In this document: positions 3,763 through 64,000 of the stretch, piece by piece | Numbering within the stretch: position 1 is the first letter of the stretch | How the letters are laid out: each line of letters starts with the position of its first letter | Origin: Thermodesulfobacteriota bacterium | GTDB taxonomy: Bacteria; Desulfobacterota_D; UBA1144; Nemesobacterales; Nemesobacteraceae | DNA length: 64,000 nt | Direction: 5' to 3' | Assembly: GCA_965200595.1 (NCBI GenBank) | Contig: CBDAUE010000002.1 | Span: 258,896 to 322,895, forward strand | The notes under the pieces: model-generated | What the model was told of the DNA's origin: nothing | The model's input: the letters and a program-made list of their open reading frames with translations, nothing else | Database searches by the model: none | Program-made: the position numbers and the translations under genes

Positions 3763-3772
3763 CGGTTTTTCC

Positions 3773-5276: not shown

Positions 5277-5279
5277 GAA

Positions 5280-5738: not shown

Positions 5739-5743
5739 GCCGC

Positions 5744-6526
5744 ATGCTGGTTGATTCTCACGCCCATCTGCTCAGCATTGAAGACCCCGAGGGTGCCGTC
5801 TCGAGGGCTTCTGCCGAGGGAGTAGGGAAGATCATATCCATCGGTACGGGAATTGAGTCATCCCTTGCCACCATTGAATTTTCAAGAAAATACAGGGGAG
5901 TTTACGTGTCGGTCGGAGTGCATCCGCACTCCGCATCGGATTTCAGTGAGCAGGTGATGCGGGAGTTTGATGCAATGGCCGAAGATCCCAGGGTGGTGGC
6001 GATCGGAGAGACCGGCCTTGACTATCACTACATGAGTTCTCCCAGAGAAGATCAGATAAGGTCGTTTGAAGCGCATATTGAGCTTGCAGGGAGGCACGGA
6101 CTTCCTTTTGTGGTTCACGCAAGGGATGCGGATGAGGAGCTGCTTTCGATCCTGCGTAGCGCCGATCTCAGCTCGAAACCTGGAGTCATTCACTGTTTTT
6201 CCGGGGATTACGAGACGGCCAGAAAATATCTTGATCTCGGGTTTTTTATTTCCTTTTCGGGCATAGCGACTTTTAAAAGAGCGGAGGAGGTAAGGGATGC
6301 GGCGGCAAAAATTCCGATCGACAGGCTTTTATACGAAACGGATTCTCCCTACCTGGCGCCGGTGCCCCGCAGGGGAAAACCGAACGAACCTTGCAATGTG
6401 GTCTATGTGGCAAGGCTTCTCTCGGAGCTTAGGGGACTGTCTTTTGAGCAGTTCACCGAGAGCGTTTTTGAAAATGTGCTGGAGCTTTTCCCGAAAGTGT
6501 CCGGCGACAGAGAAGGTCTTATCTAA
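5744..6526 (+). CDS. tatD: TatD-family metal-dependent hydrolase (DNase)
   Basis: MLVDSHAHL… GETGLDYHY…; 260 aa. Confidence 0.9.
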   Translation: MLVDSHAHLLSIEDPEGAVSRASAEGVGKIISIGTGIESSLATIEFSRKYRGVYVSVGVHPHSASDFSEQVMREFDAMAEDPRVVAIGETGLDYHYMSSPREDQIRSFEAHIELAGRHGLPFVVHARDADEELLSILRSADLSSKPGVIHCFSGDYETARKYLDLGFFISFSGIATFKRAEEVRDAAAKIPIDRLLYETDSPYLAPVPRRGKPNEPCNVVYVARLLSELRGLSFEQFTESVFENVLELFPKVSGDREGLI

Positions 6527-41086: not shown

Positions 41087-41131
41087 AGCGTGGTTTCAAG
41101 TTTGAAACGCAACATTTAAGTAAACTAAAAG
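41087..41131 (+). repeat. IS30-family terminal inverted repeat (left end), copy 1 of a 45-bp direct repeat
   Basis: CGTGGTTTCAAGTTTGAAACGCAACATTTAAGTAAACTAA, located about 50 bp before the IS30-like transposase start; a near-identical copy lies at 55537-55580. Confidence 0.6.
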
Positions 41132-41182
41132 GGCAAGCTGCGATAGTCTTCGCAACCGTCTTTTAGATACCAAATCAATAAG

Positions 41183-41285
41183 GAGCGTTTAGATGAGAAA
41201 ACCAAAGCAACTTACCAAGGTAAAAAGATACCAGATTGAGGTCCTGTGCAAAGAAGGGCTCAACCAGAGGCATTTGCGTAGTAGG
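41183..41285 (+). pseudogene. IS30-family transposase, N-terminal HTH fragment (33 codons then a stop; IS30-like HTH continues out of frame to about 41511)
   Basis: MRKPKQLTKVKRYQIEVLCKEGLNQRHL matches the IS30-family N-terminus (…LT.EERYQIE.LLK.G.S…); the out-of-frame IAVLPGCGRSSPHKVEFRLN resembles IA..LGRS.STI.REI.RN. Confidence 0.55.
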
Positions 41286-41464
41286 GGGTTTTGAGATTTT
41301 TGGAAGCACACAGCGGAAGGGAGGGGAGGGTATTCCGGCAATTTCAAAGCCGAGTTGTCTGATTCAGGCTGATTCAGACACAACTCAGCACCAATTTCAC
41401 CCAGGAATCGCTGTTCTGCCCGGGTGCGGACGCAGCAGTCCACACAAGGTTGAATTCCGTTTAA

Positions 41465-43000
41465 ATTTTCTGGTGAATAATTTAAAGAAGGACTATCCGG
41501 TATCGGTATAAAACCCCGACACAAGGGATCTGATACGCTCCGTTCTGCCAGCCTTTGCGTGACCCACCGCAAGAGCCATTATCACTGCAATCGCCATACC
41601 CGCTCTGAAGGCCATCTTCGCCTTGCCCCTGATATAGTGCTTCTCAAACCTGAAGCTGCCCCCTATGCGTGAGTTTAAACGCTCAATGGCAGTTCGCTTT
41701 CTGTAAGCCCGGTTCCATGACGGACTGCCGTGCCGCGCGGGAGTAAAAATACGACGGTCACGCTCAAGAGACACCCGCACCACCCTGCCGTAACCATTGG
41801 TCTTTTTGCCCGCGTCACTGTGACACTTCTTCCAGCCCTTGCAGTCAAGATTGTACTCGGCGGCCGCCGGACAGCGGAACTTCAAAGTGCCTCTTTTCTT
41901 CTCAAGCCCGTAAGAAGCCATCCTGCGCTCCTTGCCGCTTAGCGGACAGCGACACCATATCTGTCCCGTCTCAGTATAAAGAATGTTGTCGTGCACACTG
42001 TTAAGAGGTCTCATGATCCTCTGCCCCGGAACATAGCTCTGCCCCTGCTTTTCCTCCCTCCACAGCCGCCTGATGTCTATAATCGGGCTGATCCTGTAAT
42101 CATCCCACAGCTTGGCTTTGAGCGGACCGCTGTCAAGCCCCCTGTCAGCAGTGAAGTACTTGCACCGCCCGGCAAGCTCGGAGTTATTGCCGAACAAACT
42201 GTCAGCCATCCGTTCACACTGTTTTATTTCGCTTGTCGAGGCTTCGGTCAGACTGAACGCAACCGGTATCTCATACTCGGTGTCGGCAATGATATGAAGC
42301 CGGTAGCCAAACCATTTTTTTACCTTGCTCCATTCCCTGCCGTCAGAATCAACTCCTCGGTACTTGTGCACGCCCCAGTTCGCGTCGGGATCAGACTTTT
42401 TGCCTGCCCTGCGGTTTGTTCTGCCTGTTGAATGACTCTTTATCGCCTTGCCGTCATAACCGAGGTGCTTGCCGAATTCGGGAAGCACCTCCATAAGCTC
42501 TTTGCACAGATGATTGTTTATCATCTCCGATACCAGACCCTGCTGCAGGTCGAGCTTTGCAAGGTTTGCAAGGAACCCGGAGAAGTTATAACTGCGGGGA
42601 GCAGAACTGCGAGACTCAAAATCTGTAATCTTGACCACGCCGCCGGGTTCAACCTCATACCTGTCACGTCTCTGCATAGGCACCGTGGAGAATCCGCAGA
42701 CGGCAAGCAGAGATGAATTGCGGTTAAGCTCCCGGATTAAAGACTCTATGGATTCGTGCCCGAACACTATCCCCGCCACAAAGGCCCTCCACATCGCAGA
42801 TACCGGGTACTGGTTGCGTCCGTTTTTGCGCATACACTCAAGAGCCCGGATGATATGGGCGTCGGGCAGGCTGTCAAGAACCATCTGAAGACGGTTAAAA
42901 TCCGATGCTCTATCGACTTGGTCCCAGCTGAAAGGTAGATTAAATTGTGTCGCCATGGGTTTGCTCCTTTTTTAAGGTTGGTATGCCTTTAATTATAACC
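41465..43000 (-). mobile_element. IS4/IS5-superfamily insertion sequence (approximate ends) inserted into the IS30-family remnant
   Basis: Single 487-aa DDE transposase; imperfect terminal IRs (CCTTCTTTAAATTATTCACC at about 41465-41490 reverse-complementary to CCTTTAATTATAACCC at about 42985-43000). Confidence 0.5.
41493..42956 (-). CDS. DDE transposase (IS4/IS5 superfamily; exact family not assigned)
   Basis: 487 aa; the C-terminal …RTAIERLNSRIGGSFRFEKHYIRGKAKMAFRAGMAIAVIMALAV is the characteristic end of DDE_Tnp_1-type transposases. Confidence 0.75.
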   Translation of the reverse strand: MATQFNLPFSWDQVDRASDFNRLQMVLDSLPDAHIIRALECMRKNGRNQYPVSAMWRAFVAGIVFGHESIESLIRELNRNSSLLAVCGFSTVPMQRRDRYEVEPGGVVKITDFESRSSAPRSYNFSGFLANLAKLDLQQGLVSEMINNHLCKELMEVLPEFGKHLGYDGKAIKSHSTGRTNRRAGKKSDPDANWGVHKYRGVDSDGREWSKVKKWFGYRLHIIADTEYEIPVAFSLTEASTSEIKQCERMADSLFGNNSELAGRCKYFTADRGLDSGPLKAKLWDDYRISPIIDIRRLWREEKQGQSYVPGQRIMRPLNSVHDNILYTETGQIWCRCPLSGKERRMASYGLEKKRGTLKFRCPAAAEYNLDCKGWKKCHSDAGKKTNGYGRVVRVSLERDRRIFTPARHGSPSWNRAYRKRTAIERLNSRIGGSFRFEKHYIRGKAKMAFRAGMAIAVIMALAVGHAKAGRTERIRSLVSGFYTDTG

Positions 43001-43809
43001 CATGGCGACCACTTAATCAGGTGATATCAGTAAGTTACCTGCTATTTTCCTTAAGTTTTTCAACGCAGATTACGGCTTGGGGTGGAATTTGCGGTCCTTG
43101 ACCAGAATCAGTCGTTTTTTAGGGGTTTTTACCAAGATTCTGGGGTGAAAAGTTTTTTCACCCCTCCTTATACCCCTGCCCCGTATGGCTATCCTTTACT
43201 ACGCAAATGCCTCGATTTTTATGTGAAATTTTAGAAATCGTACTATTTGAAGTGGGTTGGTTTTCTGGATTATTTGCTAGGGCCTGATTCTGCTTATTAT
43301 GAGGGTCAACTCAGAACCATAAGTTATTAAGCGAAGCAAAGTGAATAATTTTTTCTGTCGGGCTTTTCTTTTGACCGCTTTCCCCGCGGTTCCCTAAAAC
43401 GGTACGATTTACCGTAGAAGAAGATATACAAAGACATTCAGGGAATTGGACTTATCTATACTTTTGACCGGTCCACGTTTCTATCAGATGGGAAAACGGG
43501 ACAAGGCGGCCTTGCTTAATGCGCAATACTATGTGAGAGATGTCTGAAAGCGAGATGCTGTCCCGGTTCTGCTCACTATGCTGCTGATTTTTCAGTTCAG
43601 TGTAGTGCTTTACCAAGAGGACAAATTAATATCCGCTAGGACAGATTTCCGTTTTGAGCAAGTCGATTCGCGTTAATATGGACAACACTTGTTTGCTTGC
43701 TGTATAATGTTGCCTCAACAGTTTCGAGAAGAAAGAGAGATTAGCACGAGAAGCTTGGCTATCCTAATCTGCTTTTCCTTATCTTGCAACAATTTGGAGG
43801 CAACGAAAT

Positions 43810-50128: not shown

Positions 50129-52067
50129 GTTTCCTGACTTCCGCACTTTTGTAACGTAAGTACCTGATATTACACAAGCGGGTTCCCGCTTGTACACTAC
50201 ACAAGAGCTTTTGAGATGTTTATTAGTCAGCCGGGAGTCCCCGGTCTGTTTTTACCAGGAATCCGCAAGCATGGTCTGCCTGCTGAGCACCGCTCCCACA
50301 GCGGAGTAAAGAGATCTCTGCTCCGTGGTGCCCTGAGAAGGTATCAGATACCTCTTATTGGTTCCCCTGTCCACCACCAGGGACGCCTCAACCCTGCCAA
50401 GTTCTGACAGTATGGCCCCTTCACTCATCGGTTCCTTTCCCCCATGATAACAGTTGTGCCTGAACCTCAGTATGCGAAGCAGTACGAATGCCGTAAAACA
50501 GATGGCCATGTGAGCCTCCACTCTCCTTTGAGTCCAGTGAAACACAGGCCTTACAGCCATTGTGTGCTTCATGACACGAAACCCTTCTTCTATCTTCCAT
50601 AACTCCCCGTAACAGTCGTATATCCTGGAGGCATCGTATTTGTCAGCAGGAAGACTGGTCCATACCCCGTGAGGACCGTCAAACTTCTCATCCCTCTCCA
50701 CCGCTTCGGTGTCTACAGACACGGCCCCCGCTTCCACCTTGATGAACCTGCCCCTGCGTCCATTGCCCTTTATCCCCCCTGCTATCCTTCTCTCAAGTTT
50801 CTTTAAAGCCTCTTCCCTGTCCTGCGAGTCTTTCCTCGCTCTCTTCTCGCAGTGACGCAGAACAAGCCTCCGTCCTCCCACTTCCATATCCCCAAGTCTT
50901 TTACCTTCCCCTATCTCTTTCCAGTCACTGTGTGAGAATACCTTCTCGCTGTCCTCCTCGGACATCCCCCGAAGCCTTGCCGCTACAACCCACTCATACT
51001 TATTGCGCTTTAAGACCTCAAGATTCTTTTTGCTCATCATCCCCGCATCCCCCACAAACACCACCCTTTCAAGCTTGATCCTCTTCTTTAACCCCTCTAT
51101 AGCAGGCTCAAGAGTGCTTACATCAGATGTGTTCCCCGGAAACAGCTCATAACCCAAGGGAAGTCCGTCTTTGGTCTGAAACAGTCCCAGCACCACCTGA
51201 ACCCTGTGAGGCTTCCCGTCCTTGCTCCACCCCTTCCTTCGAAGATCGTCTTGCGTGTCGCTTGCAAACGAAAGGGTTGTAACATCGAAAAACACAACTT
51301 CAACCTTTCCTTCAAAAAGTCCCATAACTTCTTTGCTAACAATGCTCTGAAGCTTCTCAGTACGCTTCTCGTCAACCTTGTCCATCATCCTGTACAGCTT
51401 GTCCACAGACACTTCCATTCCAAATTCCCGAGACAGCTTCGCATGGGCTCTTTTGCTCTTCCCAGGTGCCGCAAGACGCATAAGCACTGCCTGACGGAAC
51501 AGCCTGCCCGCCATCTTGTTTCTCGCTCCCCATATCCTGTCAAACCCAAGCTGACTGTACAGTTCTCCAAACACTTCATGAAACCCAAGATTGTAACGAG
51601 CCTCCTCTTCAAGCAATCGGGCATCAACTATGGGCAGGGGTTTGTCCTTCTGCTTTGTTCTTCTAAGCTTTATCAGCTTCTCAGCAGTGTCTTCAGCGGG
51701 GAACAGTGTGGGCTGTACGCTCTGTTCAAGACGGTTCTTCTCCACATGTGCAGCTCGCACAAGAGCGTCAAGAGGTTCTCCCGGGGGAGCGGAGCCCATG
51801 TGACGCACTACCTTCTGGCGTGGCTCACCCTTTGAGTTCCTGTAGGAATGCACTATCTGCACCGATATGTTGACTGTGGTCTGGCGTTTTAGCTGTTTTA
51901 CGAACATGTTGAATATTATAAGGGAAAGCGGAGGCGATGTCGAGCACAAAATTAGACTGAGCACTACAAAACGATTTGAAGCAGGCTGAAAATCAATATC
52001 AAGTAATTACAGGTACTTACGAAACTTCAAAGGCCCGACTTAAAAAAAACATGCTGAAGTCAGGAAA
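50129..52067 (-). mobile_element. IS1634-family insertion sequence
   Basis: Terminal IRs TTTCCTGACTTCCGCACTTTTGTAACGTAAGTACCTG (50130-50167) and the reverse-complement of CAGGTACTTACGAAACTTCA…GAAGTCAGGAAA (about 52005-52067); single 570-aa transposase. Confidence 0.8.
50252..51964 (-). CDS. IS1634-family DDE transposase
   Basis: 570 aa; N-terminal …VQIVHSYRNSKGEPRQKVVRHMGSA… matches the IS1634-family hallmark (…VESYR.GGKVRQRV..NLG…). Confidence 0.8.
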   Translation of the reverse strand: MLSLILCSTSPPLSLIIFNMFVKQLKRQTTVNISVQIVHSYRNSKGEPRQKVVRHMGSAPPGEPLDALVRAAHVEKNRLEQSVQPTLFPAEDTAEKLIKLRRTKQKDKPLPIVDARLLEEEARYNLGFHEVFGELYSQLGFDRIWGARNKMAGRLFRQAVLMRLAAPGKSKRAHAKLSREFGMEVSVDKLYRMMDKVDEKRTEKLQSIVSKEVMGLFEGKVEVVFFDVTTLSFASDTQDDLRRKGWSKDGKPHRVQVVLGLFQTKDGLPLGYELFPGNTSDVSTLEPAIEGLKKRIKLERVVFVGDAGMMSKKNLEVLKRNKYEWVVAARLRGMSEEDSEKVFSHSDWKEIGEGKRLGDMEVGGRRLVLRHCEKRARKDSQDREEALKKLERRIAGGIKGNGRRGRFIKVEAGAVSVDTEAVERDEKFDGPHGVWTSLPADKYDASRIYDCYGELWKIEEGFRVMKHTMAVRPVFHWTQRRVEAHMAICFTAFVLLRILRFRHNCYHGGKEPMSEGAILSELGRVEASLVVDRGTNKRYLIPSQGTTEQRSLYSAVGAVLSRQTMLADSW

Positions 52068-52090
52068 ATGCTGTCTAAAAAAGGGGACCA
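52064..52090 (+). repeat. 27-bp solo fragment identical to the outer tip of the IS3-family IRR seen at 8226-8252
   Basis: AAAATGCTGTCTAAAAAAGGGGACCACC at 52064-52090 matches the reverse-complement of 8236-8263; it supplies the last codons and stop of the truncated IS1182 transposase ORF. Confidence 0.8.
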
Positions 52091-53064
52091 CCGCTGTCGG
52101 CAAGCAGATTCTCAGCCTTGCCAAGCCTCTGCTCATTCTCCTTTAACTGCTCAAGCACGGGCTCTATCTCACGCTTGTCGTTTGTGTTCTGCGTTACATG
52201 CCTGGTCACTATAAGTCTGCTCTCCACATCCACTGCACCCTGAGCGTTGTATGCCTGCTCAAATCCCCCTCCCGAAGGCATTATCCGCGAATCTCCGTCC
52301 ACAAGATTCACCTGATCCTTATCCCTCGGTCTGCTCCCTCCTGCCTTCTTCCCGCTTTGCTTCTCATACTGTTCCCGCTTCTCTACCTTCTCCCCGTACA
52401 CTTCTGACTCCCGCTCATACCTGTGCTTTGCCCGCTCCTGTATCTCACGCTTCGCTTCCCGTCTCTGAAGTTCTTCGGGAACATTCATATCCTCTGGCAG
52501 TTTAGAGTTGTCAGCCTCCCGTGCAAGTCTCATCAGTTCCTTCACTTCTTTGTTCAGCTGCTTTTCTATCTTCCTTGCCCTCTTCCAGCTCAGTGCCTTG
52601 TGCCTGCTCGCATTAGCCTTTATCTTCGTGCCATCCACACTCACCGTGCCCATCCCTATCTGTCCCGCTATCTGCAGTATCTGTACAAACAATACCCCAA
52701 GCTCCTTGCCAAACCTCTTGCGGAACCTGTTTATGCTGTCATGATCCGGATTGCTGTTAGCGCATATATACCTGTACGCCACACTGTCATATGTTGCCTT
52801 CTCAAGCTTCCGGGAAGAGAATGTCCCCGTCGCGTATCCGTAGAACAGAAGAGCCACCTTCATTCCCGGATGATACGCTGCCGACCCCCTGCCCGAATAC
52901 GCTTCCGTCAGCCTTCTCAGATCCAGCTGCTCAACTATCTCCACCACAAACCGGGCAAGATGGTCTTCGGGCAGATACTCTTCTATTGTAGGCGGAAACA
53001 TCTGCGGCGTCTTGCGGTCTGCTGATACAAACCTCCGTCTCATTGTCTTCTCCTTCTCAGACAT
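52075..53064 (-). pseudogene. IS1182-family transposase, C-terminally truncated (ends at LLADSGG where LADAGY is expected)
   Basis: …LPEDHLARFVVEIVEQLDL…GRGSAAYHPGMKVALLFYGYATGTFSSRKLE…DGTKIKANASRHKALSWKRARKIEKQLNKEVKEL…DGDSRIMPSGGGFEQAYNAQGAVD…; 329 of about 460 aa. Confidence 0.75.
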
Positions 53065-53089
53065 CTTGATACCGTTGTTTTAACATTAA

Positions 53090-54082
53090 ATGACCGCTAA
53101 AGCCCGACAGACTCCTAGGCGGATTATTAAAGCTCGTTTCTGGTCAAGCGATAGCAAAACGCCGCAGGCCACTGTCAGTGCCTGTTTTTATTTGGATATC
53201 AAAAAGCATGGGGAGCAGTCGACCTTTGTGAAGGTTGCGCCTGGAAAGTTCTTCCTTCGGGGTGTTCAGCCTGTTGCTGTTTGCGATGCGAAGGAACCGG
53301 AACCAGAAAACGAAAGTGATCCAACCAGCCCGAAAAAAACGTATTCATTTCTGGATGCCGCAGAAAAAGTTCTGGATCACTTTGGCAACCGAAACTCCAT
53401 GCATTATCGGGATATTACCCACAAGGCTATTAATCAGGGCTGGTTGAAAACCTCAGGCAAGACTCCCGAAGCAACAATGAATGCTCAACTTATAACAGAA
53501 ATCAAGCGGACAAAAACCAGCAGGGTGCCCGGGCGGTTTGTGCGCAATTCTCGAGGGCATTACAGTCTCGTCAAATGGATGAAAACAGGCTTGGAGTCTC
53601 AAATTTCCAAACACAATCAGGAAATCCGTAAAAATCTGCTCTCTCAGTTGATGGGTATGAGTCCAGTTCAATTTGAGGAGCTGGTTGGACAGTTATTGGC
53701 TGAGATGGGCTTTGAAAGCATCGAGGTAACCAAAATCAGTCGTGACGGCGGTATGGATGTTCGGGGCACTTTGCTTATCAGTGATGCGGTCCGGATTAAA
53801 ATGGCTGTTCAAGCAAAACGCTGGAAAGCTAATATTCAAAGTCCGATCGTTCAACAGGTGCGCGGCAGTCTTGGCGCACATGAACAGGGGCTGATTATTA
53901 CGACCAGCAAATTCAGCACTGGCGCTAGAAAAGAAGCAAATCAGCCGGACAAAACTCCCGTGGGCCTCATGGACGGAGAACAGCTGGTCTCGCTCCTGAT
54001 GGAATACGATATAGGTGTCCGCCGCATATCACATGACCTTTTCGAGCTGAAGGAACTGCCGACAGAAAAGGAAAATATATAG
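53090..54082 (+). CDS. mrr: Mrr-like type IV restriction endonuclease (HARE-HTH/Mrr_N winged helix plus Mrr_cat PD-(D/E)xK domain), with an about 80-aa N-terminal extension of uncertain validity
   Basis: Mrr_N: …YSFLDAAEKVLDHFGNRNSMHYRDITHKAINQGWLKTSGKTPEATMNAQL…GRFVRNSRGHYSL; Mrr_cat: LSPVQFEELVGQLLAEMGFESIEVTKISRDGGMDVRGTL…KMAVQAKRWKANIQSPIVQQVRGSLGAHEQGLIITTSKFSTGARKEA…. Confidence 0.8.
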   Translation: MTAKARQTPRRIIKARFWSSDSKTPQATVSACFYLDIKKHGEQSTFVKVAPGKFFLRGVQPVAVCDAKEPEPENESDPTSPKKTYSFLDAAEKVLDHFGNRNSMHYRDITHKAINQGWLKTSGKTPEATMNAQLITEIKRTKTSRVPGRFVRNSRGHYSLVKWMKTGLESQISKHNQEIRKNLLSQLMGMSPVQFEELVGQLLAEMGFESIEVTKISRDGGMDVRGTLLISDAVRIKMAVQAKRWKANIQSPIVQQVRGSLGAHEQGLIITTSKFSTGARKEANQPDKTPVGLMDGEQLVSLLMEYDIGVRRISHDLFELKELPTEKENI

Positions 54083-55573
54083 ATGTCTTCATTTCTATCA
54101 TGGGTTGATCATGACTCGAAAGCCAGAGAGCGTACTCTTCGAATTCTTTCCCTTTTTCAGGAAAGGGAAAGCCGTGACGAACTTGGACTTGCTTCGGTGC
54201 GAGACAGCTTTGCAGATCAATTATTCCCCGGCACAAGTACGATCCAAACACGCCTTCGGTACATGCTCTTCGTACCATGGATTTACAATTCCTTAGAAAA
54301 GAAAAGCCTCCCTGCGCCAAGTTTTGCGAATCAGGCTGAAAAGCTTGAAAGAGACCTTGTTCAGCCTTTATATGGATTCAGATGAGGCTGGTGTATTTAG
54401 TAAAACTGCAGGAAAGGGGCTTAAACGGTTGCCCAGTTCTGTATACTGGGCAGGTCTCGGAGCGTGGAGAATACGCCGTACTCAATTCTCACAGGATGAA
54501 TACCATCGGCGCATCGATGAAACCTATAGTCGCAGGAATGACCTTAAGGCTCTTGAGAAAGATGCTAAATCAAGAGGCGATGACATAGACATTGAGCGGC
54601 GTAGCGCCATTTCAAACTGGCATCCAAGCCTGCCATAGCCACCGCAAGATTTTCCAGATAAGGCTGATCTTGATTTGTCCCGGGAGGAAGCCGAATTCAT
54701 TTGTGACTGTATACAGAGGGCTTACCCTAACAGTCTACTCTCTTTTCTGTCATTGAACTCTAAACCAGCTGAAACCAGTGCCCCATGGGAGCATCCCGAC
54801 TACGGCAGCTTTTCCGATGAACATAAAAAACTTCTGACACATGCCAGGCTCTTCTCCGAAGTGATGCACGGCACGGCGCTTTCGTATAACGTCCAACTCG
54901 CCAAGCTTCGAAAGGATGATGAGCTTGTCGAAAGGCATCAAAAAAGTTTCAACAATTGGGTGAAAATCCTTCCTTTAAAGGAAATTGAGGGTTGGCAGCT
55001 GACACAGCTCTGGGATTTGACCGTCGGTCATGGGTACACCATTACTCCACAAATGCGTTCCTTTGTTCAGTGCTGGGTCGATTATACACTCGAATATCCA
55101 GATCCAAACAACCTTCTCTACGATACTGATGCGCTGAATCTTATAAAAAGAAGAGAAATGAGACTTAAAGGCCCGCGTTCCCGTTTTAGAAATCAAAGAG
55201 CGCTAGAACAGTGGGGAGGATCTTCCGGTGTTCGGAAGAAACTAGACTACCGGTGGCCAAATATAAAAGTGCTTCTAGACGACCTTGATCAAGGTATGAA
55301 TCGGTACGAAAAATGCTGAATCCAAACTCCCGAAGCCTATATACTTCCGCATTGACTCCTCCACCGGGAATGATCTTTGACGAAGCTGTTGCAACAACTT
55401 TTTCAATGGATCCCGCTTTACTACTTGAGGCTCCTGTTTATCTGGCGCTAATGGCGGCAGATGGCCAGTCAGATTCAGACCCGTTATTTGTACTTGAAGC
55501 AATCCGGAGATACTCAAAGAAAATCACTGTTTATGTACGTGGTTTTAAGTTCGAAACGCGACATTTGAAGTAA
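54083..55573 (+). pseudogene. Disrupted gene of unrecognised family, translationally coupled to mrr (TAGATG): two frameshifts (about 54330-54385 and about 55313), one in-frame TAG (54636-54638), and 3' truncation by the IS30 IR relic
   Basis: Four consecutive ORF-track fragments (frames 2, 0, 0, 2) read through as one about 497-aa protein; no Walker A motif; an Rx6H motif (RRSAISNWH) sits just before the amber codon; the last codons (…YVRGFKFETRHLK*) are encoded by IS30 IR sequence. Confidence 0.6.
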
Positions 55574-55580
55574 ACTAACA
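55537..55580 (+). repeat. Solo IS30-family terminal IR relic, copy 2 of the 45-bp repeat
   Basis: CGTGGTTTTAAGTTCGAAACGCGACATTTGAAGTAAACTAA versus 41087-41131 (4 substitutions, 1 indel); no transposase follows. Confidence 0.6.
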
Positions 55581-55681
55581 TGAACAGGATTTAGCAAGCT
55601 TGGCTTTAATCGTGACTTTGCTGTTCTCCTCGTTTGTTATAAATTGCTAACAGAGCATCATCCTATCATCGTGGAGGTAGC

Positions 55682-55834
55682 ATGACTGCAAAGATATGGG
55701 TACAAGTAGGTGGTTTTATAGCCGTTTTAGGTTTTCTCTGGAAGCTATCTCAGGATGTGGGTTATCTCCGCGAGAGAATGGTGAAGTTTGAAGCAGCAGT
55801 TAAAGGCTTTCTTAAAGGAAAGCAAAACGGATAA
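55682..55834 (+). CDS. Small (50-aa) single-TM hypothetical protein
   Basis: MTAKIWVQVGGFIAVLGFLWKLSQDVGYLRERMVKFEAAVKGFLKGKQNG; strong SD GGAGG 7 nt upstream of the ATG; below the ORF-track length cut-off. Confidence 0.45.
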   Translation: MTAKIWVQVGGFIAVLGFLWKLSQDVGYLRERMVKFEAAVKGFLKGKQNG

Positions 55835-55952
55835 TGTAATAAAAGATTTCTCAACCTTACATCGCATACCTGTAAGAGCGAATTCTCAGAAGTTGTGCTG
55901 AGCTCAAGGCAACACTTTTAATATGCTTATGGAATCTACATAATCGCTTGAA

Positions 55953-56046
55953 TATGTTGATTTTCTTCCTGTTTTTCGACATGTTTGCTTAACGTGTCGA
56001 TTTTTCTCCTTTTTTCGACACATTCTCCCAATAATGTTGATTTCAT
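55953..56046. repeat. Array of 2.5 related 28-bp hairpin units (7-bp arms, 14-nt pyrimidine-rich loop) immediately 3' of fic
   Basis: ATGTTGATTTTCTTCCTGTTTTTCGACAT (55953-55981), GTGTCGATTTTTCTCCTTTTTTCGACAC (55993-56020; perfect GTGTCGA/TCGACAC arms), partial AATGTTGATTTCATC (56032-56046). Confidence 0.5.
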
Positions 56047-56050
56047 CATG

Positions 56051-57130
56051 CTATCCCTTCAGCACCTGCAATAGCCGCTCATTGATGTAATATACCTCCC
56101 GGCCTGCTTTCACAGGGTGCAGCAGGTCAGCTTCAGCAAAGGCCTTTAGATAGGTCGAGGCGGTCTGTCGCTTGGCCAACCCCCGTTGCTCCAAAAAGCG
56201 GATTCTGCAGTAGGGCTGCTCAAAGATCAGCTTGATCAGTTCCTTGGAATAGGCCTTCGGGGTTTTTGCACGGGAAATCTCTTCTGTCTCTTCCATCAGA
56301 TCCGCAATCTGCTGGATCAGTTCTCGGGTCTCCCTTGCCGTCTCCTTGATGCCCCGTAGCATGAACAGAATCCAGTCCTCCCAAGCCTGCTCTCTGGTAA
56401 CCCGGCGCAACCCTTCGTAATAGTCCCGCTTGTGGCGGACAATGTAGCGGCTCAAACAAAGCACCGGCAGTTCCAGCAAGCCTCGCTCAACCAGATACAG
56501 AATATTCATAATACGCCCGGTTCGACCGTTGCCATCGCTGAACGGATGTATGGTCTCAAACTGGTAGCGCATAACCGGCAGTCGGATTAGGGGATCGAGA
56601 CCGCTTTGCTCGTCGTGGATGAACTGCTCCAGGTTGGCGAGCAACCCCTGCAGCCGCTCCTCACCCTCGGGAGGGGTATAGATGCTTCTGCCTCCACTGC
56701 CGGCCAGTCTGGTGCCAGGCAGCCGCCGGATGCCCATTTGCTTGCCCTTGATCATCTCCGCCAGATCGATAAACAGGTTGGTGCTCAGGGGGCGCTCCCG
56801 CAGCTTTTCGAATCCGCCCCACAAGGCCTGCTGATAGCGCAGGACTTCCCTAGTTTGGGGCGAGGCAGAAGATGCATCGGTGGCGGCTCGGTACAGCTCA
56901 TCCTTGGTGGCCAAGATGTTTTCGATCTCCGAGGAAAGGCGCGCCTCCTGCAGGACCACCGCTTTGATCAGGATATTCTGGTTGGGGATAATATTTCCCG
57001 CGCCCTTAAGTTCCGCCAGCTCGCGGGAGGCGGCCACAGCCTGCCTGAGCACCTGTACTGTCTCTAACGGCACGCCATGCGGCGGCAATGACGGGAGACT
57101 GTTGTAGGGGCGGTCTGAATCGAGACTCAT
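56051..57130 (-). CDS. fic: Fic/DOC-family protein (class II, N-terminal inhibitory helix) with a C-terminal winged-HTH
   Basis: Fic motif HPFSDGNGRTGR; upstream inhibitory motif SSEIEN (S-xxx-E-N); 359 aa; the locally GC-rich composition is a by-eye impression. Confidence 0.88.
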   Translation of the reverse strand: MSLDSDRPYNSLPSLPPHGVPLETVQVLRQAVAASRELAELKGAGNIIPNQNILIKAVVLQEARLSSEIENILATKDELYRAATDASSASPQTREVLRYQQALWGGFEKLRERPLSTNLFIDLAEMIKGKQMGIRRLPGTRLAGSGGRSIYTPPEGEERLQGLLANLEQFIHDEQSGLDPLIRLPVMRYQFETIHPFSDGNGRTGRIMNILYLVERGLLELPVLCLSRYIVRHKRDYYEGLRRVTREQAWEDWILFMLRGIKETARETRELIQQIADLMEETEEISRAKTPKAYSKELIKLIFEQPYCRIRFLEQRGLAKRQTASTYLKAFAEADLLHPVKAGREVYYINERLLQVLKG

Positions 57131-57349
57131 GTCTCCTCCTGACCGGTTTTTATGTCCAGTTCCGAAGACATCAGCTTCGGAGCGGCTTTCAGTTATACTA
57201 TGGATACACTACCGGATTCACCCGAGCAAGAAATGGAAGTGACTGTTTAGAAAAGAAACCGGACGATTAATCTGCTCCGTGGTTTTATGTTCCGGAATCG
57301 GACAGTTTAATTTGAAAATTCCAAGTACAGACTTGACGAAAAGTTCCCT

Positions 57350-57715
57350 ATGAATTCAAGTACAGTTGATCTTGACGAGATACTCAATGACTTCAGCAAA
57401 GTAGCCGAGGAGGCATCCCAAGAGAATTTTCCGGTTCCGCATAAAAGAGCGATAGAAAATGCAGAGTCTTTGATAAAAAGAACCTATGAGATCTTCCCCC
57501 GTCGTTTTGAAGTTTATCCGGACCAGGACGGAGCAATTGCCATTGATATCTACAACGGAAAAGGGAAATCAGTTCTTTTGTTATGTGAATCTAAAGGGGA
57601 AATCCTATTTCTAGCTGATGTGAATGGTGAGAGTTGCCGCAAACGCTATTCGCAATCAGGAATAAAGAAGCTTCCTGACGATTTCATAAAAAGGGCTTTG
57701 AGGCAGCTGCTATAA
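57350..57715 (+). CDS. Hypothetical protein (121 aa), divergent from fic
   Basis: ORF with no recognisable motifs; 220-bp divergent intergenic region shared with fic. Confidence 0.4.
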   Translation: MNSSTVDLDEILNDFSKVAEEASQENFPVPHKRAIENAESLIKRTYEIFPRRFEVYPDQDGAIAIDIYNGKGKSVLLLCESKGEILFLADVNGESCRKRYSQSGIKKLPDDFIKRALRQLL

Positions 57716-57860
57716 CCCTGTCCTCTGGCACAGATTTTTGAATATTTTTCTTAAGACCTCGGAAAAGCAATGGCTTGGCCGTCGCATATTTTCAAAAAGC
57801 TGTTAAGAGTGTACGGCAGAAGATTCCCTGTAACCTTATTAAGCTTGGGGATTTAATGAA

Positions 57861-58448
57861 GTGAAAACTATTGTAATTGCCACTAAAAACAAGGGAAAGC
57901 TAAGAGAGTTCGGATCAATTCTCGCCGGTGCCTACGACGAGATACTGTCTCTGGCGGATTTTGATCAGATTGCCGACATACAGGAAACAGGCCTTTCTTT
58001 TCGGGAAAACGCTCTTATAAAGGCAAAGACAACCTGCGATTTTCTGGGCATGGATTCTATCGGGGATGACTCGGGTCTGGTCGTGGATGCTCTGGGCGGA
58101 GCCCCGGGAATTTATTCGGCAAGATACTCGGGTGAGGGTGCCTCGGATGATAGCAACAACAAAAAACTTCTCTTTGAACTTAAAGGGGAGGAAAACAGAG
58201 ATGCCAAATTTGTGTGCTGCATAGCTTTGGTGCTTGCCGACGGAACGCAGGAGTTTTTTGAAGGCGAGTGCAGCGGGCAGATTATCCGGGAGAAAAGAGG
58301 CGAGGGCGGTTTTGGTTACGACCCGGTTTTTTATGTTCCCGAGTACCAGAAAACCATGGCTGAGCTCGGCCCCCGCATAAAAAACAGGATAAGCCACAGA
58401 GCCGTTGCCTCCCAGAAGCTTCTGTCGTATTTTTCGGATTCCGGATAA
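57861..58448 (+). CDS. rdgB: Non-canonical purine NTP pyrophosphatase (RdgB/HAM1 family)
   Basis: MKTIVIATKNKGKLREF…GFGYDPVF…; 195 aa. Confidence 0.92.
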   Translation: MKTIVIATKNKGKLREFGSILAGAYDEILSLADFDQIADIQETGLSFRENALIKAKTTCDFLGMDSIGDDSGLVVDALGGAPGIYSARYSGEGASDDSNNKKLLFELKGEENRDAKFVCCIALVLADGTQEFFEGECSGQIIREKRGEGGFGYDPVFYVPEYQKTMAELGPRIKNRISHRAVASQKLLSYFSDSG

Positions 58449-58602
58449 GCGCGGCTTTTGGTTCTGACCGCAATTTGCGATGTAAATCGAAGCGGCGGGC
58501 CGCGATAATTTCGTTTTTAATTGTAAGCTGCCCTCCAATTGAATATATTTAGACTCCGTCCTTTGTTTTTTACTGTTGTTCTAACCTGGCGGGGGGTTCT
58601 GC

Positions 58603-60216
58603 TTGAAAAGCGCGAAGTTTATTTTTGTCACCGGCGGAGTTATGTCTTCTCTTGGAAAGGGGATATCCGCTTCCTCAATAGGCTTTCTTCTTGAATGCTG
58701 CGGTCTTCGGGTCACGCTTCAGAAGCTTGATCCCTACATAAACGTCGATCCGGGCACGATGAACCCGTTTGAGCACGGGGAGGTTTTTGTTACCGATGAC
58801 GGTGCGGAAACGGATCTTGATCTCGGTCACTACGAAAGATTCACCAACGCCAAGCTCGGCAAGAAAAACAATCTTACAAGCGGCAAAATCTACGATTCCG
58901 TTATTTCCAAGGAAAGGGAAGGCAAATTTCTCGGAAAAACAGTCCAGGTGATTCCTCACATAACCGATGAGATAAAGTCGCGCGTGCTTGCCCTTAAAGA
59001 CGACAACGATGTCATTATAGTGGAGATCGGCGGCACCGTGGGAGATATTGAGAGTCTTCCTTTTCTTGAGGCTGTAAGGCAGCTGAGATCGGATCTCGGA
59101 AAACAGAACACCCTGTTCATACATCTCACCTATGTTCCCTTTGTCGCCGCGGCAGGAGAACTTAAGACAAAGCCAACGCAGCACAGCGTTAAGGAGCTTC
59201 TGCAGATAGGAATTCAGCCCGACATACTGCTTTGCCGCACCGAGGAAAAGTCTCTGCCAGAAGATGTCAAAAGAAAAATAGCCCTTTTCTGCAACATTGA
59301 GCAGAAGGCGGTGATCACGGCCAAGGACGTTGAGCACATATACGAAGTTCCGCTTACGTACAAAAAAGAGGGATTGGCCGAGATAATTGTTGAATATCTC
59401 GGCATGTGGACAAAAAAACCCGACATGGGCGAGTGGGAAGGGCTTGTTCGCAGAATAAAGAATATGAAAAAAACCGTGCGCATAGCCGTTGTCGGAAAAT
59501 ATGTTTCGCACGGAGATTCATACAAAAGCCTCCACGAGGCACTGTACCACGGCGGACTGGCCCATGATTCAAGCGTTGAAATAAAATACGTGAATTCAGA
59601 GCAGATGGACGGCATGTCCCCGGACAGCTACTTTTCCGATGTTCACGGCATACTTGTTCCCGGAGGGTTCGGGAAGAGAGGGATTGACGGCAAGGTCGAC
59701 GCCACCAGATACGCAAGGGAAAAGCAGATTCCGTTTTTTGGAATCTGCTACGGCATGCAGCTTGCCGTTGTTGAGTTTTCAAGAAACGTCTGCGGCATGG
59801 ATGACGCGGATACGACCGAGAACAACGGCGATACCAAAAACCCCGTTATAGACATAATGGAATCCCAAAAAAGCGTGAGCGAAAAGGGCGGAACAATGAG
59901 ACTCGGGGCCTATCCGTGCGTAGTAAAACCCGAAACACTTGCCGGCAGCATCTACGGAACTTCGCATATCTCCGAAAGACACAGACACCGGTTTGAAGTG
60001 AACAACAGCTACAGGGAAATGTTTGAGTCAAACGGAATGGTTCTTTGCGGTCTGTCGCCGGATGGAAATCTGGTTGAAATAATGGAACTTAAAGACCATC
60101 CTTGGTTTGTCGGCTGTCAGTTCCATCCAGAATTCAAATCAAAGCCCTTAAGCGCCCACCCGCTTTTCAGGGATTTCATAAGGGGGGCGCTTCGCTACAA
60201 GGATTCTCTTGGCTGA
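58603..60216 (+). CDS. pyrG: CTP synthase (PyrG)
   Basis: [21 protein letters not shown]…; C-terminal GATase ([10 protein letters not shown]…HRHRFEVN); 537 aa. Confidence 0.97.
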
Positions 60217-62241
60217 TTGAATCTCGAATCGCTCCGTTTGATGAACCTTCCTGCTATAAACGAACTTATTGCCTACAGAAAAAGAAGGGAGCCAGCCTTC
60301 GGGGTGGTTCTCTCTGTCCATCCTGAAAAACTCTCTGTTTTCTCAGAAGACGGAAAGCGCTACTCGGTTGAACCGAAAAAAATCGCGCTGATTACCGGAA
60401 TAACTGTTTCTGAGAGTCTTACAGACTCTGAGAAAAAACTCGAAATGAGAAAACAAAGAAGAGAACTTGAAGAGAAAAAAGACTCTGTTGACGTTGAGAT
60501 GCTGTGGGAGTGTGTTGTGGAAGAGCAGGAGACCGTGAGCTTTGAGGAGATGCTGGATCTGTATTCGGGGGCGGAGCAGATTTCTTCGCAGCACAGGCTT
60601 TTGCTTTTCTGGGCAGTGGATAAAAACACTGTTTATTTTACAAGAAGTGAAAACGGCTATCTGGTGCGCTCCCGCGAAGATGTCTCCAAAACGATTCGTG
60701 CCGTTGAACTCAGAGAGCAAAGAGAGCAAAAAGCGCAGGCGGCCGCAAGCTGGGTGCGTTCCGTCATAAACGGCAAAGTTCCCGCGGCGGTTGATGAGAC
60801 CCACAGCGAGTTCCTTGAACTGATCGAGCGGTACGTCATTGACCTTGACGGCTATGAGCGGGCTAAGGAGGCCAAGAAGTTTCTCTATGAAGCGGGACTT
60901 AAGGAAGTGGAATCGGGGGTTGAATTTCTTATAAGAACGGGTTTTTGGAGCAAAGACGATGATCCGGAATCAAAAAAAATCGCTTTTCACTTCACACGCT
61001 CGCCAAGAGAGCTTGAAGAGTCAGAAGCTTCTTTGAGCGCCGGGGAAAACTTCAAAGGCCTTGCCGAGAGAACGGAACTTGAAGTTTTTTCAGTTGACAG
61101 CGAGACCACGCAGGACATCGACGACGCCATCTCTTTTGAAATGCACGGGGATCGGTTCACCCTTGGAGTCCACATCTCAAATGTCGCCCATGCTGTAAGC
61201 AGAGGAAGTTTTCTTGATCAGGGAGCCCTTAAGCGTGCCGAGACGGTTTATTTCCCGGAAGGGCGTGTGGATATGTTTCCTCGGGACCTTGTGGGCAGAA
61301 AACTCAGCCTGACTTCAGGCGATCTACGGCCCGCTCTTTCTCTTTTTGCCACTTTTAACAGAAAAGACCTGACCCTGATCGATTATCGCTTTGAGGCTAC
61401 GGTCATAAGGGTTTCCCAAAATCTTACCTACGCAGAAGCAACCAGGATGTTTGGCAGTACGCAATGGGGAGAGCATCTGACATCTCTTACTGATTCACTC
61501 AGGCAGCGCAGAGTCAGCAAAGGGGCTTTTTTGGTTCAGCTTCCGGAACTCAAAATCAGGATCGGAGAACTGAACGGGATATCGGTCGCCAAGGACTATA
61601 TGGATTCCCCTGCCCACAATGTGGTTTCTGAATGCATGATACTTATGAACCGGCTTTCGGGAGATTTTTTCGATAAGAACGAAATTCCGGCACTGTTTCG
61701 CTCTCAGACCCAGGAGATTGATTCCGAAGCCAGAGAGCTTGACCCGAAAGACATTCTTTTTCCCGTAAAGGTAATAAAGCACTTAAAACCCTCTTTTGTC
61801 AGCTCGGCCGCTCATATCCACAAGTCTCTGGGGGTTGACTGCTATGTTCAGATGACCTCTCCCATCAGAAGATACACGGACCTTCTCATGCAACGCCAGA
61901 TTATATCCTGGCTTGCAGAACAGAAGATCTGCTACATGGAAAATGAGCTTGAAGACACAAACACGCGGGTGAGTCTTGCCACCAGGGAGATAAAAAACGC
62001 CCAGAGAAGCAGACACAGGTACTGGCTTATCCGCTATCTTCTGGAAAATGACATAAAGGGGGCAAGAGGCTACGTAAGTTCTAGGGGATATAATGGGTTT
62101 AACGTTTATATCCCGGAGTTTCTGATCGAACTTGCGCTTTCTAACGCAGGCGGCAGGGCTTTTGATATAGGAAGCGAACTCTCCTTATCCATCTGGGGGA
62201 TGGATCCTCTGAGAAGAAGGATACGCGTGAGTCCGGATTAA
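60217..62241 (+). CDS. rnr: RNB-domain exoribonuclease (RNase R/RNase II family)
   Basis: RNB catalytic motif VFSVDSETTQDIDDAISFE; 674 aa; the start abuts the pyrG stop. Confidence 0.8.
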   Translation: MNLESLRLMNLPAINELIAYRKRREPAFGVVLSVHPEKLSVFSEDGKRYSVEPKKIALITGITVSESLTDSEKKLEMRKQRRELEEKKDSVDVEMLWECVVEEQETVSFEEMLDLYSGAEQISSQHRLLLFWAVDKNTVYFTRSENGYLVRSREDVSKTIRAVELREQREQKAQAAASWVRSVINGKVPAAVDETHSEFLELIERYVIDLDGYERAKEAKKFLYEAGLKEVESGVEFLIRTGFWSKDDDPESKKIAFHFTRSPRELEESEASLSAGENFKGLAERTELEVFSVDSETTQDIDDAISFEMHGDRFTLGVHISNVAHAVSRGSFLDQGALKRAETVYFPEGRVDMFPRDLVGRKLSLTSGDLRPALSLFATFNRKDLTLIDYRFEATVIRVSQNLTYAEATRMFGSTQWGEHLTSLTDSLRQRRVSKGAFLVQLPELKIRIGELNGISVAKDYMDSPAHNVVSECMILMNRLSGDFFDKNEIPALFRSQTQEIDSEARELDPKDILFPVKVIKHLKPSFVSSAAHIHKSLGVDCYVQMTSPIRRYTDLLMQRQIISWLAEQKICYMENELEDTNTRVSLATREIKNAQRSRHRYWLIRYLLENDIKGARGYVSSRGYNGFNVYIPEFLIELALSNAGGRAFDIGSELSLSIWGMDPLRRRIRVSPD

Positions 62242-62424
62242 CTTTCGGTGCCCAGCACCTAGGTTCAGACAGGCAAGGTTGATGTCGGAACGGGAAAGAT
62301 TACTCTTTCAGTCCTCTTCCTGACATTCAGTACAATTTCTTGGAATCAGTTCTTAGAAGTATTACAAGTGTCTGTAGCTGCTGGATATAGCTTTACAGAA
62401 GACTGTTTGCTTACAGTAAGGTTA

Positions 62425-62637
62425 AAAAACGTTAAGGTTTGAGAGTGCAGCAATAATTGTAATGGCAGCTACCATTAAGCCTCCCAGCCTGATAAGCATT
62501 CTCTGTTCAAGCTCTTTAATATCTCGCTTTATATCCAGTCGAAGTTGCTCAATGTCTTGCTTTGTGGCCAGTTCAAGCTTTTTAATATCTCGTCGAACTT
62601 CTTCAATATCTCGCTTTGTGGCCAGATTGGACTCAAT
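62425..62637 (-). pseudogene. Start-less DUF1640/XhlA-like coiled-coil plus C-terminal TM small ORF (71 open codons between stops; no ATG/GTG/TTG)
   Basis: Minus-strand translation IESNLATKRDIEEVRRDIKKLELATKQDIEQLRLDIKRDIKELEQRMLIRLGGLMVAAITIIAALSNLNVF*; the heptad repeats LATK.DI..L..DIK.L correspond to the about 60-bp tandem DNA repeat at about 62505-62625. Confidence 0.45.
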
Positions 62638-62769
62638 TCAAGAATGATAAGCCCAATCCACAAAGCTTGCCGAATGAAGAATCCAGCGTCTTCTGTCGGC
62701 AAGGTCTCTATACAGATGTGCTGAATTCAGGATGTCGGAGCGGGAAGGGGAAGGGGTGGGATCGCTTTT

Positions 62770-64000
62770 TCAGTGCTCTTTTTCAAGTATTTCCAGGATT
62801 TCTTCAACCCTTGAGACCTTCACCCTAGGCCTTCCTTGCTTTTCGCCTTGTTTTTTTTCAAACCGGTCAACCTGCAGCCATTCATTGTAGGAGATATGTT
62901 TTTCATCAAGCAGTTCCTTTATGCTCTCATCCGAAGTGAGTTCTGGCCGCAGAGTGTTTTTCCTCTCAATGTCCTCGATCATGCAGCTTACGGTTTCAGC
63001 TGAGTCGGCCTTGTTTGTTCCGATAACGCCGGTCGGCCCGCGTTTTATCCATCCTGTGGTGTAAAGTCCAGAAACCGGACTGCCGCCCGTTTTGTCAAGA
63101 ACCCTTCCTTTTTCGTTGGGGATTGATCCTGACCTGTCGTCAAACGGCACATCCGGAAGAGGTATTCCCCTGTATCCGACGGAGCGGAAGACCAGATCGG
63201 CCGGAATCTCTTCTGTCTCGCCCGTGGGTTTGGGCCGAAGGGAGCCGTCATCGGATTTGTAAAGCCTGTTTCTCACGACCCTCACGCTTTTTACCCTGTT
63301 GTCCTCTCCTGCGACTATCTCTGTTGGGGAGACCAGAAATCTTATGACGATTTTTTTGGATTTGGAGGGAGTTCTCTCAGAAGCTTTTTTTATGAGATCT
63401 ATTTTAGTCTGGACTGACCTGTTCGGTTTACGCTCAAGCTCTTCAGGCGTAAGGGAATCGGATTCGGCTTCGTCCGCCAAGGTAAGGAGGTCCGCATCCT
63501 CAAGTTTTTCAAGCTCCCGAAGCTCAGGGTTGGTGAAGGCCGCCTGAGCGGGCCCCCTTCTTCCAAGCATCTGTATTTCCCTTATTCCGCTCCCGGCAAG
63601 TTTTTCAAGCGCGTAGTCTGCGATATCCGTTTTTTCCATTTCGTTTCTTGTGAGGGATAAAATTCTGGCAACATCCACCGCGACGTTTCCGACACCGACT
63701 ATGACGACCCTTTTGCCCGAAAGGTCAAAACCGAGACCCATGTGGTCCGGGTGGGCGTTGTACCAGCCTACGAACTCCGTTGCCGTGTGGCTTCCGATCA
63801 GGTCCTCTCCCGGTATTCCCATTTTTCTGTCGGTCTGAGCCCCTGTTGCGAAAACTATCTGGTGGTAACGGCTGGCAAGGTCCCCAAGCGTTATGTGTTT
63901 TCCGAATTCTACCAGTCCGAAAAACCTGAATTGAGGATTGGATGCAGTTTTGTCGTAAACCCTGGCTACGCTCTTTATTTTCTGATGGTCCGGAGCCACC
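62770..64000 (-). CDS. FprA/adrenodoxin-reductase-like NADPH:ferredoxin oxidoreductase, C-terminal 409 aa (the N-terminus lies beyond the window end)
   Basis: …GKRVVIVGVGNVAVDVARIL… NADPH-binding Rossmann motif; …FATGAQTDRKMGIPGEDL…; overall resemblance to FprA-type reductases. Confidence 0.6.
   Translation of the reverse strand, partial: VAPDHQKIKSVARVYDKTASNPQFRFFGLVEFGKHITLGDLASRYHQIVFATGAQTDRKMGIPGEDLIGSHTATEFVGWYNAHPDHMGLGFDLSGKRVVIVGVGNVAVDVARILSLTRNEMEKTDIADYALEKLAGSGIREIQMLGRRGPAQAAFTNPELRELEKLEDADLLTLADEAESDSLTPEELERKPNRSVQTKIDLIKKASERTPSKSKKIVIRFLVSPTEIVAGEDNRVKSVRVVRNRLYKSDDGSLRPKPTGETEEIPADLVFRSVGYRGIPLPDVPFDDRSGSIPNEKGRVLDKTGGSPVSGLYTTGWIKRGPTGVIGTNKADSAETVSCMIEDIERKNTLRPELTSDESIKELLDEKHISYNEWLQVDRFEKKQGEKQGRPRVKVSRVEEILEILEKEH

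Follow-up and report, generated by a model that had tools for sequence, protein, structure and literature searches.

We analyzed a stretch of 64,000 nucleotides from contig CBDAUE010000002.1 of a Thermodesulfobacteriota bacterium (hereafter the window), concentrating on positions 53090–55573, where the remains of an Azaca defense system follow a gene for an Mrr-like restriction enzyme. Three features lie in succession on the + strand: a 5'-truncated mrr-like type IV restriction gene (53090–54082), which is an open reading frame (ORF) of 330 aa with a partial HARE-HTH, a second HARE-HTH and an Mrr_cat domain; a zacA pseudogene of ~410 codons (54083–55319), encoding the DUF6361 protein specified by the first Azaca gene; and a 5' relic of zacB (55313–55540), comprising the first 76 of ~604 codons for a PLD-family nuclease. 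Azaca is outlined in earlier accounts as a set of three genes, for a DUF6361 protein, a PLD nuclease and a helicase (10.1101/2024.10.26.620412; PMC10952713, citing Millman et al. 2022). Azaca is reported to protect more than 10^6-fold against T4 and to cut T4 DNA preferentially in vitro; all three proteins are required, and the system depends on the ZacB nuclease and on the Walker A residues of ZacC, while mutating conserved ZacA residues has no effect (bioRxiv 10.1101/2025.07.10.664194). The system as described contains no mrr, whereas the window and five related loci carry mrr directly upstream of zacA in the same operon.

The identity of the middle gene is central to the interpretation of the locus. 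A first-pass annotation of this DNA had taken the ~1.5 kb downstream of mrr for a single interrupted protein of ~500 aa belonging to no recognizable family. We found that three ORF pieces (54083–54385, 54324–54638 and 54639–55319) each match Pfam DUF6361 (PF19888) as well as the PADLOC profile for ZacA (PDLC03828), the latter with expectation (E) values of 5.4e-43, 1.4e-18 and 1.4e-61. The pieces cover profile positions 1–96, 97–176 and 178–395 of 396; as they are collinear and tile the profile, they represent one gene of ~410 codons. The partner therefore belongs to a named family over profile positions 1–395 of 396, and a match to a named partner family is the outcome that the first-pass annotation had itself given as overturning its reading. 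The remaining 86-aa ORF (55313–55573) is the N-terminus of ZacB, so the supposed ~500 aa combine a ZacA of ~410 aa with the beginning of a second protein. NCBIfam returned no match for any of the five pieces of the locus. When the conceptually repaired ZacA was used as a query and 8000 candidates were scored, 2963 of these proved to be homologues. Almost all of the 120 homologues listed are ~409 aa long, uninterrupted, and have PF19888 as their sole domain; the best identity to intact 409-aa homologues was 77–78%.

The lesions in zacA became apparent on alignment of the DNA with its five closest relatives. A single inserted T at 54371, missing in all five, shifts the reading frame: around this site the relatives read CCnyTr-ATGGAT and the window reads CCTTTATATGGAT. 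Across the same junction, protein homologues read QPLMDSD; the relatives' DNA, CAG CCn yTr ATG GAT, translates as QPLMD. Further downstream, an amber codon at 54636–54638 occupies the place of GAG in four relatives and AAG in one, at a column that is variable (E/D/A/K/V) in the ZacA protein alignment. There are also three in-frame indels: a loss of 3 nt after 54384, a gain of 6 nt at 55096–55101 and a gain of 3 nt at 55233–55235. We considered programmed frameshifting or stop-codon recoding and rejected both, given that the homologues are all uninterrupted and the amber codon falls at a variable column. The pseudogene status and the amber codon reported in the first pass are thus upheld, as is one of the two frameshifts, the T at 54371; the other is the native overlap between zacA and zacB.

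This overlap, ATGCTGA at 55313–55319, in which the start codon of zacB overlaps the stop codon of zacA, is the same in L082, L003, L104, L011 and L002 (loci are referred to by L numbers), that is, in Mrr-linked and unlinked Azaca alike. The window shares with Azaca a ZacA profile match of nearly full length and, after it, the start of zacB joined by the conserved overlap; the canonical order zacA-zacB-zacC holds in the closest intact relatives. The last ORF piece matches PADLOC ZacB with an E of 3.6e-25 over profile positions 1–76 of 586, and in a tblastn comparison the relic was 93% identical to residues 1–76 of the intact 604-aa ZacB of L011. Its Shine-Dalgarno sequence, located inside the upstream gene, has been lost (GGGAGGGA to GGTACGAAAA). 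Azaca has a ZacB of ~600 aa with a catalytic HxK region and a ZacC of ~1060 aa, whereas the window retains 76 zacB codons and no zacC. The PLDc_2-like region of L011 ZacB lies at ~299–342, past the breakpoint. Searching the 64-kb window by tblastn with the L011 proteins revealed no further ZacB segment and no ZacC (best E 1.3). With ZacB and ZacC missing, Azaca activity is impossible at this locus, and from the gene content we conclude that the system here is certainly non-functional.

The mrr-like ORF is better preserved. Mrr_cat (PF04471) matched residues 189–303 at an E of 1.5e-26 over profile positions 3–115 of 115, in agreement with the first pass, and the catalytic D...QxK region is kept, with GMDVRG...VQAKRW aligning with the conserved residues of relatives. 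An Mrr_N domain, also proposed earlier, did not match the ORF product in the Pfam search at E<=1; the N-terminal region instead consists of HARE-HTH (PF05066, E 2.3e-26) in two stretches, of which the first copy is incomplete and the second complete. A C-terminal Mrr_cat domain of the PD-(D/E)xK type with D...QxK, N-terminal winged-helix DNA-binding domains and the lack of an adjoining methyltransferase are all features held in common with Mrr-family type IV enzymes; E. coli Mrr has Mrr_N, while the window protein has two HARE-HTH modules in its place. The top PADLOC match was PDC-S02, a candidate single-gene system (1.5e-41), with type IV methyl-directed enzymes as the further best matches; PDC-S02 and mREase_IV are the PADLOC classes nearest to it. 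An exact look-up returned no identical database record for the protein. Cleavage dependent on DNA modification would be expected from family membership. HARE-HTH domains are put forward as readers of modified bases in an account that cites Aravind and Iyer 2012 (PMC11037411).

The window protein departs from other Mrr-family type IV enzymes in its insertion sequence (IS)-truncated 5' end and in its relaxed constraint. The truncation had escaped the first-pass annotation. Four close homologues start ~19 residues earlier, with MNVQDAAIQILKDAGKPLH..., and none of the 36 metagenome matches starts before query residue 5. Directly ahead of the ATG at 53090 comes an in-frame TAA (53087–53089), and no Shine-Dalgarno sequence stands before that ATG. 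A scan of the + strand from 52700 to 53090 found no sigma-70-like promoter, with counts at chance level and hence uninformative. Judged from these alignments, mrr has lost its original start together with ~19 N-terminal codons and what lay upstream.

At the other end of the gene, the TAG stop codon of mrr abuts the ATG at 54083 without a spacer, as first annotated, and the arrangement is conserved in the Mrr-linked relatives. The zacA Shine-Dalgarno sequence, which lies inside the last mrr codons, has changed from GGGAG in relatives to GGAAA in the window.

We next compared the rate and placement of substitutions on the branch leading to the window. At 218 Mrr columns that are invariant in four relatives, the window copy carries 49 private changes, compared with 0–7 in close relatives; at 211 ZacA columns invariant in 12 homologues it carries 19, compared with 0–4 in close relatives. 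Three-taxon Nei-Gojobori estimates of the ratio of non-synonymous to synonymous change (omega), with bootstrap intervals, gave 0.37 (0.25–0.61) for zacA on the window branch, 0.07 (0.04–0.12) on that of L082 and 0.18 (0.05–1.00) on that of L104. For mrr, the corresponding values were 0.17 (0.10–0.26), 0.01 (-0.01 to 0.04) and 0.03 (-0.00 to 0.13), such that the window branch evolved with an omega 6–17 times that of its relatives. We regard the mrr ORF as probably non-functional or under weakened selection.

Insertion sequences border the cassette on both sides. Directly upstream of mrr, within 50252–53064, are two transposase genes, one IS1634/IS4-like (570 aa, DDE_Tnp_1) and the other, on the - strand, a C-terminally truncated IS1182/IS5-like fragment (52075–53064; 329 of 441 aa; Pfam DUF772 and DDE_Tnp_1). 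The 90% cluster of the latter contains full-length members of 441 aa together with many truncated copies from contigs of the same assembly, and the genome looks IS-expanded. The start of the fragment is only 25 nt from the ATG at 53090, and the element abuts the 5' end of mrr at a boundary of ~53089–53093; an independent short-read contig ends at 53093. We also noted a 34-nt inverted match (97%) between 52065–52098, at the truncated end of the IS1182-like fragment, and 8230–8263, a site adjoining an rve/rve_3 (IS3-like) ORF fragment at 8351–8806; the two sites may have an IS end in common or may record a rearrangement.

At the downstream side, ZacB homology ends at 55540, where a 41-nt repeat on the + strand (55538–55578) begins. 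The repeat is 90% identical to 41089–41128 (E 2e-6), and its 28-nt degenerate core occurs at only two sites in the window, with 0 expected in shuffled sequence. The reference copy at 41089–41266, also on the + strand, is the left end of an IS30-like element, made up of the terminal repeat and 24 transposase codons. These codons read MRKPKQLTKVKRYQIEVLCKEGLNQ, and the sole Pfam match of the 25-aa peptide was a weak one to HTH_38 (E 0.14, below threshold). HTH_38 is the typical N-terminal domain of IS30-family transposases. The reference element is itself cut by an IS1182-like insertion at 41267–43213, which looks complete, with perfect 17-nt inverted repeats at 41267–41283 and 43197–43213 and a 487-aa DDE_Tnp_1/DUF772 transposase. 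Past 43213 the IS30-like frame does not resume but runs into a stop, and the 41089 copy is therefore also a mere relic. An IS30 origin of the repeat at the zacB breakpoint is plausible on this comparison. The first-pass annotation had placed an IS30 inverted-repeat relic here: the cut at the repeat is real, and the assignment to IS30 is plausible. The gene cut off is, however, zacB and not the partner of mrr, whose profile is complete to 395/396. Since only the 41-nt tip is left at the breakpoint, a later deletion probably removed the body of the element together with the remainder of zacB and zacC. With its three types of IS (IS1634/IS4-like, IS1182-like and the IS30-like relic) bordering or interrupting the cassette, the locus resembles other IS-eroded defense islands and shows nothing unusual by comparison; its breakpoint keeps just 41 nt of an IS end.

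Between the zacB relic and the housekeeping genes (Ham1/RdgB, CTP synthase) lie an ORF of 50 codons (55682–55834), which has GGAGG as its ribosome-binding site and is hydrophobic at its N-terminus, and, on the opposite strand to this ORF, a SoFic-like Fic/DOC gene with Fic_N, Fic and SoFic-like_C domains (56051–57130). The best named relatives of the CTP synthase (PyrG) are 70–76% identical and come from Ca. Dadabacteria or Thermodesulfobacteriota MAGs, which places the organism only approximately; other hits reach 93%. By means of the Fic gene we found a Logan contig (L117; SRR33960551; reported in 6 samples) that is 99.99% identical to 53093–64000 of the window, with a single mismatch, at 53103. 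The T at 54371, the amber codon at 54636–54638, the in-frame indels and the zacB breakpoint are all present in L117. Having the same bases at all zacA lesions, this contig indicates that the lesions are not an assembly artefact.

To place the window among its relatives, we examined 80 ZacA genome loci of at least 597 detected, of which 70 had enough upstream sequence. The order ZacA-ZacB-ZacC is canonical in nearly all 80. Mrr_cat occurs in 3/64 ZacA upstream neighbors, each time with HARE-HTH, and is lacking in the other 61; the remaining neighbors belong to 72 different Pfam families and include three HsdR. From the Mrr side, ZacA-ZacB-ZacC stand downstream of Mrr in three of 36 metagenome loci with close Mrr homologues (47–85% identity), and the other 33 are unlinked. 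The co-occurrence with Mrr that the first pass had asked about thus exists, in six linked loci, without being general. These six are the window, L082, L003 (on the same contig as L091), L022, L001 and L104, all of which share the same TAG|ATG junction and have the Shine-Dalgarno sequence of zacA within the final codons of mrr.

The six Mrr-linked loci are monophyletic in DNA trees built from third positions and from all positions, with the window as sister to L104; synonymous divergence (dS) is 0.03–0.7 within the group and 1.1–2.7 to unlinked Azaca. A neighbor-joining tree of ZacA proteins put the window outside the linked clade. We rejected this placement as a long-branch effect of pseudogene drift, because both DNA trees and dS put the window next to L104. 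The linked loci come from different phyla, with Desulfobacterium, Desulfobulbaceae and Spirochaetia metagenome-assembled genomes (MAGs) among them. Forming one clade with a shared junction in different phyla, they indicate that the linkage arose once and spread horizontally.

The intact version that, according to the first-pass annotation, might survive in related genomes does exist elsewhere. In L082 all four genes are intact (PDC-S02/Mrr 4e-41, ZacA 5e-145, ZacB 1e-179, ZacC E=0). This cassette is preceded (143–5942) by CBASS-like genes for an oligonucleotide cyclase and an E2-like protein, by a type I HsdR gene and by an unassigned 241-aa ORF, and the setting is a typical defense island. 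HsdR-like genes also lie beside several other Azaca and Mrr loci. Other members of the linked group have lost one part while keeping the other. In L001 (462–1277), an internal mrr deletion removes most of the Mrr_cat core, leaving profile positions 3–39, with ZacABC intact. In L022 (11224–13248, from a Spirochaetia MAG), Mrr and ZacA are intact, ZacB breaks off at ~residue 573, where an Alpha-amylase_C (GlgB-like) fragment is fused on, and a 1536-aa PKD/Big_9 protein stands in place of ZacC. Because the two parts decay independently, they look more like separable modules than a single obligate machine.

Damage comparable to that in the window occurs in other Azaca loci as well. A ~1.3 kb insert with a 400-aa ORF splits zacB in L056 (11236–14368), and an internal deletion in L059 (11188–12125) joins ZacB residues 1–104 to ZacC residues 862–1071. 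A homologue of the Mrr subfamily lies 1.6 kb upstream of zacA in L025 (2495–3451), with two genes between, and another, apparently frameshifted, lies downstream of zacC in L019 (16591–17482). The latter two arrangements hint at repeated co-location in defense islands.

As regards ZacA itself, it contains no NTPase or nuclease motif and is predicted to be all-alpha, with an AlphaFold model of good confidence (predicted local distance difference test score of 84). Comparison of the model with PDB folds gave no HEPN and no other significant match, and a sequence profile search of the PDB with the ZacA alignment returned nothing below an E of 0.1. A W-H-P-x-L-P motif (window residues 180–185 in the repaired numbering) is near-invariant among 80 homologues, with W in 80/80 and H in 75/80. 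The possible HEPN-like Rx6H noted in the first pass is not what is conserved here: its R position is R in only 28/80 homologues (E in 11, D in 11, G in 8, and others). The low conservation of R and the fold search led us to reject an HEPN-like motif in ZacA.

Collectively, our results suggest, with a probability of roughly 90%, that a four-gene defense cassette, mrr-zacA-zacB-zacC, once stood here and that the locus is its eroded remainder, left after destruction by insertion sequences and subsequent drift. The intact ancestor can be pictured from relatives such as L082. Its first gene would have coded for a stand-alone nuclease resembling type IV enzymes, in which two winged-helix HARE-HTH modules read DNA and are joined to an Mrr_cat domain of the PD-(D/E)xK type, and the other three would have specified ZacA (an all-alpha DUF6361 protein), ZacB (a PLD-family nuclease) and ZacC (a superfamily 2 (SF2) helicase/ATPase). 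The four genes were presumably co-transcribed, with translation of zacA coupled to that of mrr, because TAG abuts ATG and the Shine-Dalgarno sequence sits inside the last mrr codons. An IS1182-like element would then have taken ~19 codons of mrr along with its start and promoter; zacB past codon 76 and all of zacC would have been lost to an IS30-like element and a subsequent deletion. Afterwards, zacA would have accumulated its frameshifting (+1) and amber lesions along with three in-frame indels, and many of the positions that are invariant elsewhere would have been substituted.

Several observations weigh against this reconstruction. No stop codon interrupts mrr, which keeps its catalytic D...QxK region, and residual Mrr activity may arise from an IS-borne or read-through promoter. 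The end of the IS1182-like element beside mrr is placed only approximately, and the IS30 assignment of the breakpoint repeat depends on a 24-codon fragment (HTH_38, E 0.14). Lastly, both zacA and mrr have omega values well below 1 on the branch leading to the window, and selection therefore acted along part of it; these values do not fix the timing of inactivation.

In another explanation, only Azaca is dead and the truncated Mrr is expressed from the ATG at 53090 as a solitary modification-dependent nuclease. We regard this as unlikely. The 330 codons of mrr are open, Mrr_cat and the catalytic residues are intact, the second HARE-HTH is complete and the branch omega of 0.17 is well below 1; moreover, the subfamily usually occurs apart from Azaca and can therefore act alone. 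However, ~19 N-terminal residues of the first HARE-HTH are missing, the ATG has an in-frame stop immediately upstream and no Shine-Dalgarno sequence, and (weak evidence) the + strand from 52700 to 53090 yielded no sigma-70-like promoter. The 49 private substitutions where four relatives are invariant and the 6–17-fold elevation of omega likewise speak against a working enzyme.

A further explanation is that the ancestral Mrr belonged to a distinct Azaca subtype as its fourth, integral subunit or sensor. The identical stop/start abutment and the zacA Shine-Dalgarno sequence within mrr codons at six loci in different phyla favor it, as does the single clade of the linked loci, which implies that the four genes travel together; both Azaca, through the glucosylated hydroxymethylcytosine DNA of T4, and HARE-HTH/Mrr proteins are tied to modified DNA. 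Nevertheless, the linkage arose once and is rare, the modules decay independently (the Mrr core is lost in L001; ZacB is truncated and ZacC gone in L022), and published Azaca needs ZacABC only. Both modules also adjoin type I restriction-modification and CBASS genes, as expected in defense islands. We consider such a role of Mrr quite improbable. It is equally doubtful that the six loci constitute a four-gene Azaca subtype in which Mrr, translationally coupled to ZacA, cooperates with ZacABC, the window being a dead copy of it; were this true, Mrr could, for example, widen the range of DNA modifications recognized. More generally, from what is known of the two protein families, the ancestral cassette would have paired two nucleases linked to modified DNA, and these may have cooperated.

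The two weakest explanations can be set aside briefly. The original proposal, in which Mrr was paired with one non-ATPase protein of ~500 aa from a new family to give a type IV or abortive-infection system of two genes that had not been described before, is suggested by the real and conserved TAG/ATG abutment and by a ZacA that has no NTPase or nuclease motif and for which we found no solved structural relative, yet it is extremely improbable: the partner matches ZacA end to end, the ~500 aa are two genes, in intact loci a PLD nuclease (ZacB) and an SF2 helicase/ATPase (ZacC) come after ZacA, and the linkage is rare (3/64 ZacA neighbors, 3/36 Mrr homologues). The view that zacA is intact, its frameshift and amber codon having been introduced by faulty sequencing or assembly, has next to no chance of being correct, for although single-base indels are a common type of error, both sites read alike in the Logan assembly (6 samples), zacA also shows three in-frame indels and an excess of non-synonymous change, and zacB and zacC are missing anyway.

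The remnant of a four-gene cassette thus accounts for what first appeared to be a novel pairing, and a false lead is removed: the supposed unknown partner of Mrr is ZacA of Azaca. That ZacA is without a relative among solved structures is a property of the family and is not specific to this locus, which is an ordinary decayed copy of known defense genes in an IS-rich genome. It illustrates cleanly how a defense island is taken apart by IS expansion, with the order of events readable and the relaxed selection measurable. Mildly new is the small, horizontally spread Azaca lineage with an operon-fused HARE-HTH/Mrr nuclease. Given the reported preference of Azaca for the hypermodified DNA of T4, this pairing of Mrr with Azaca could be tested in an intact cassette of the L082 type.

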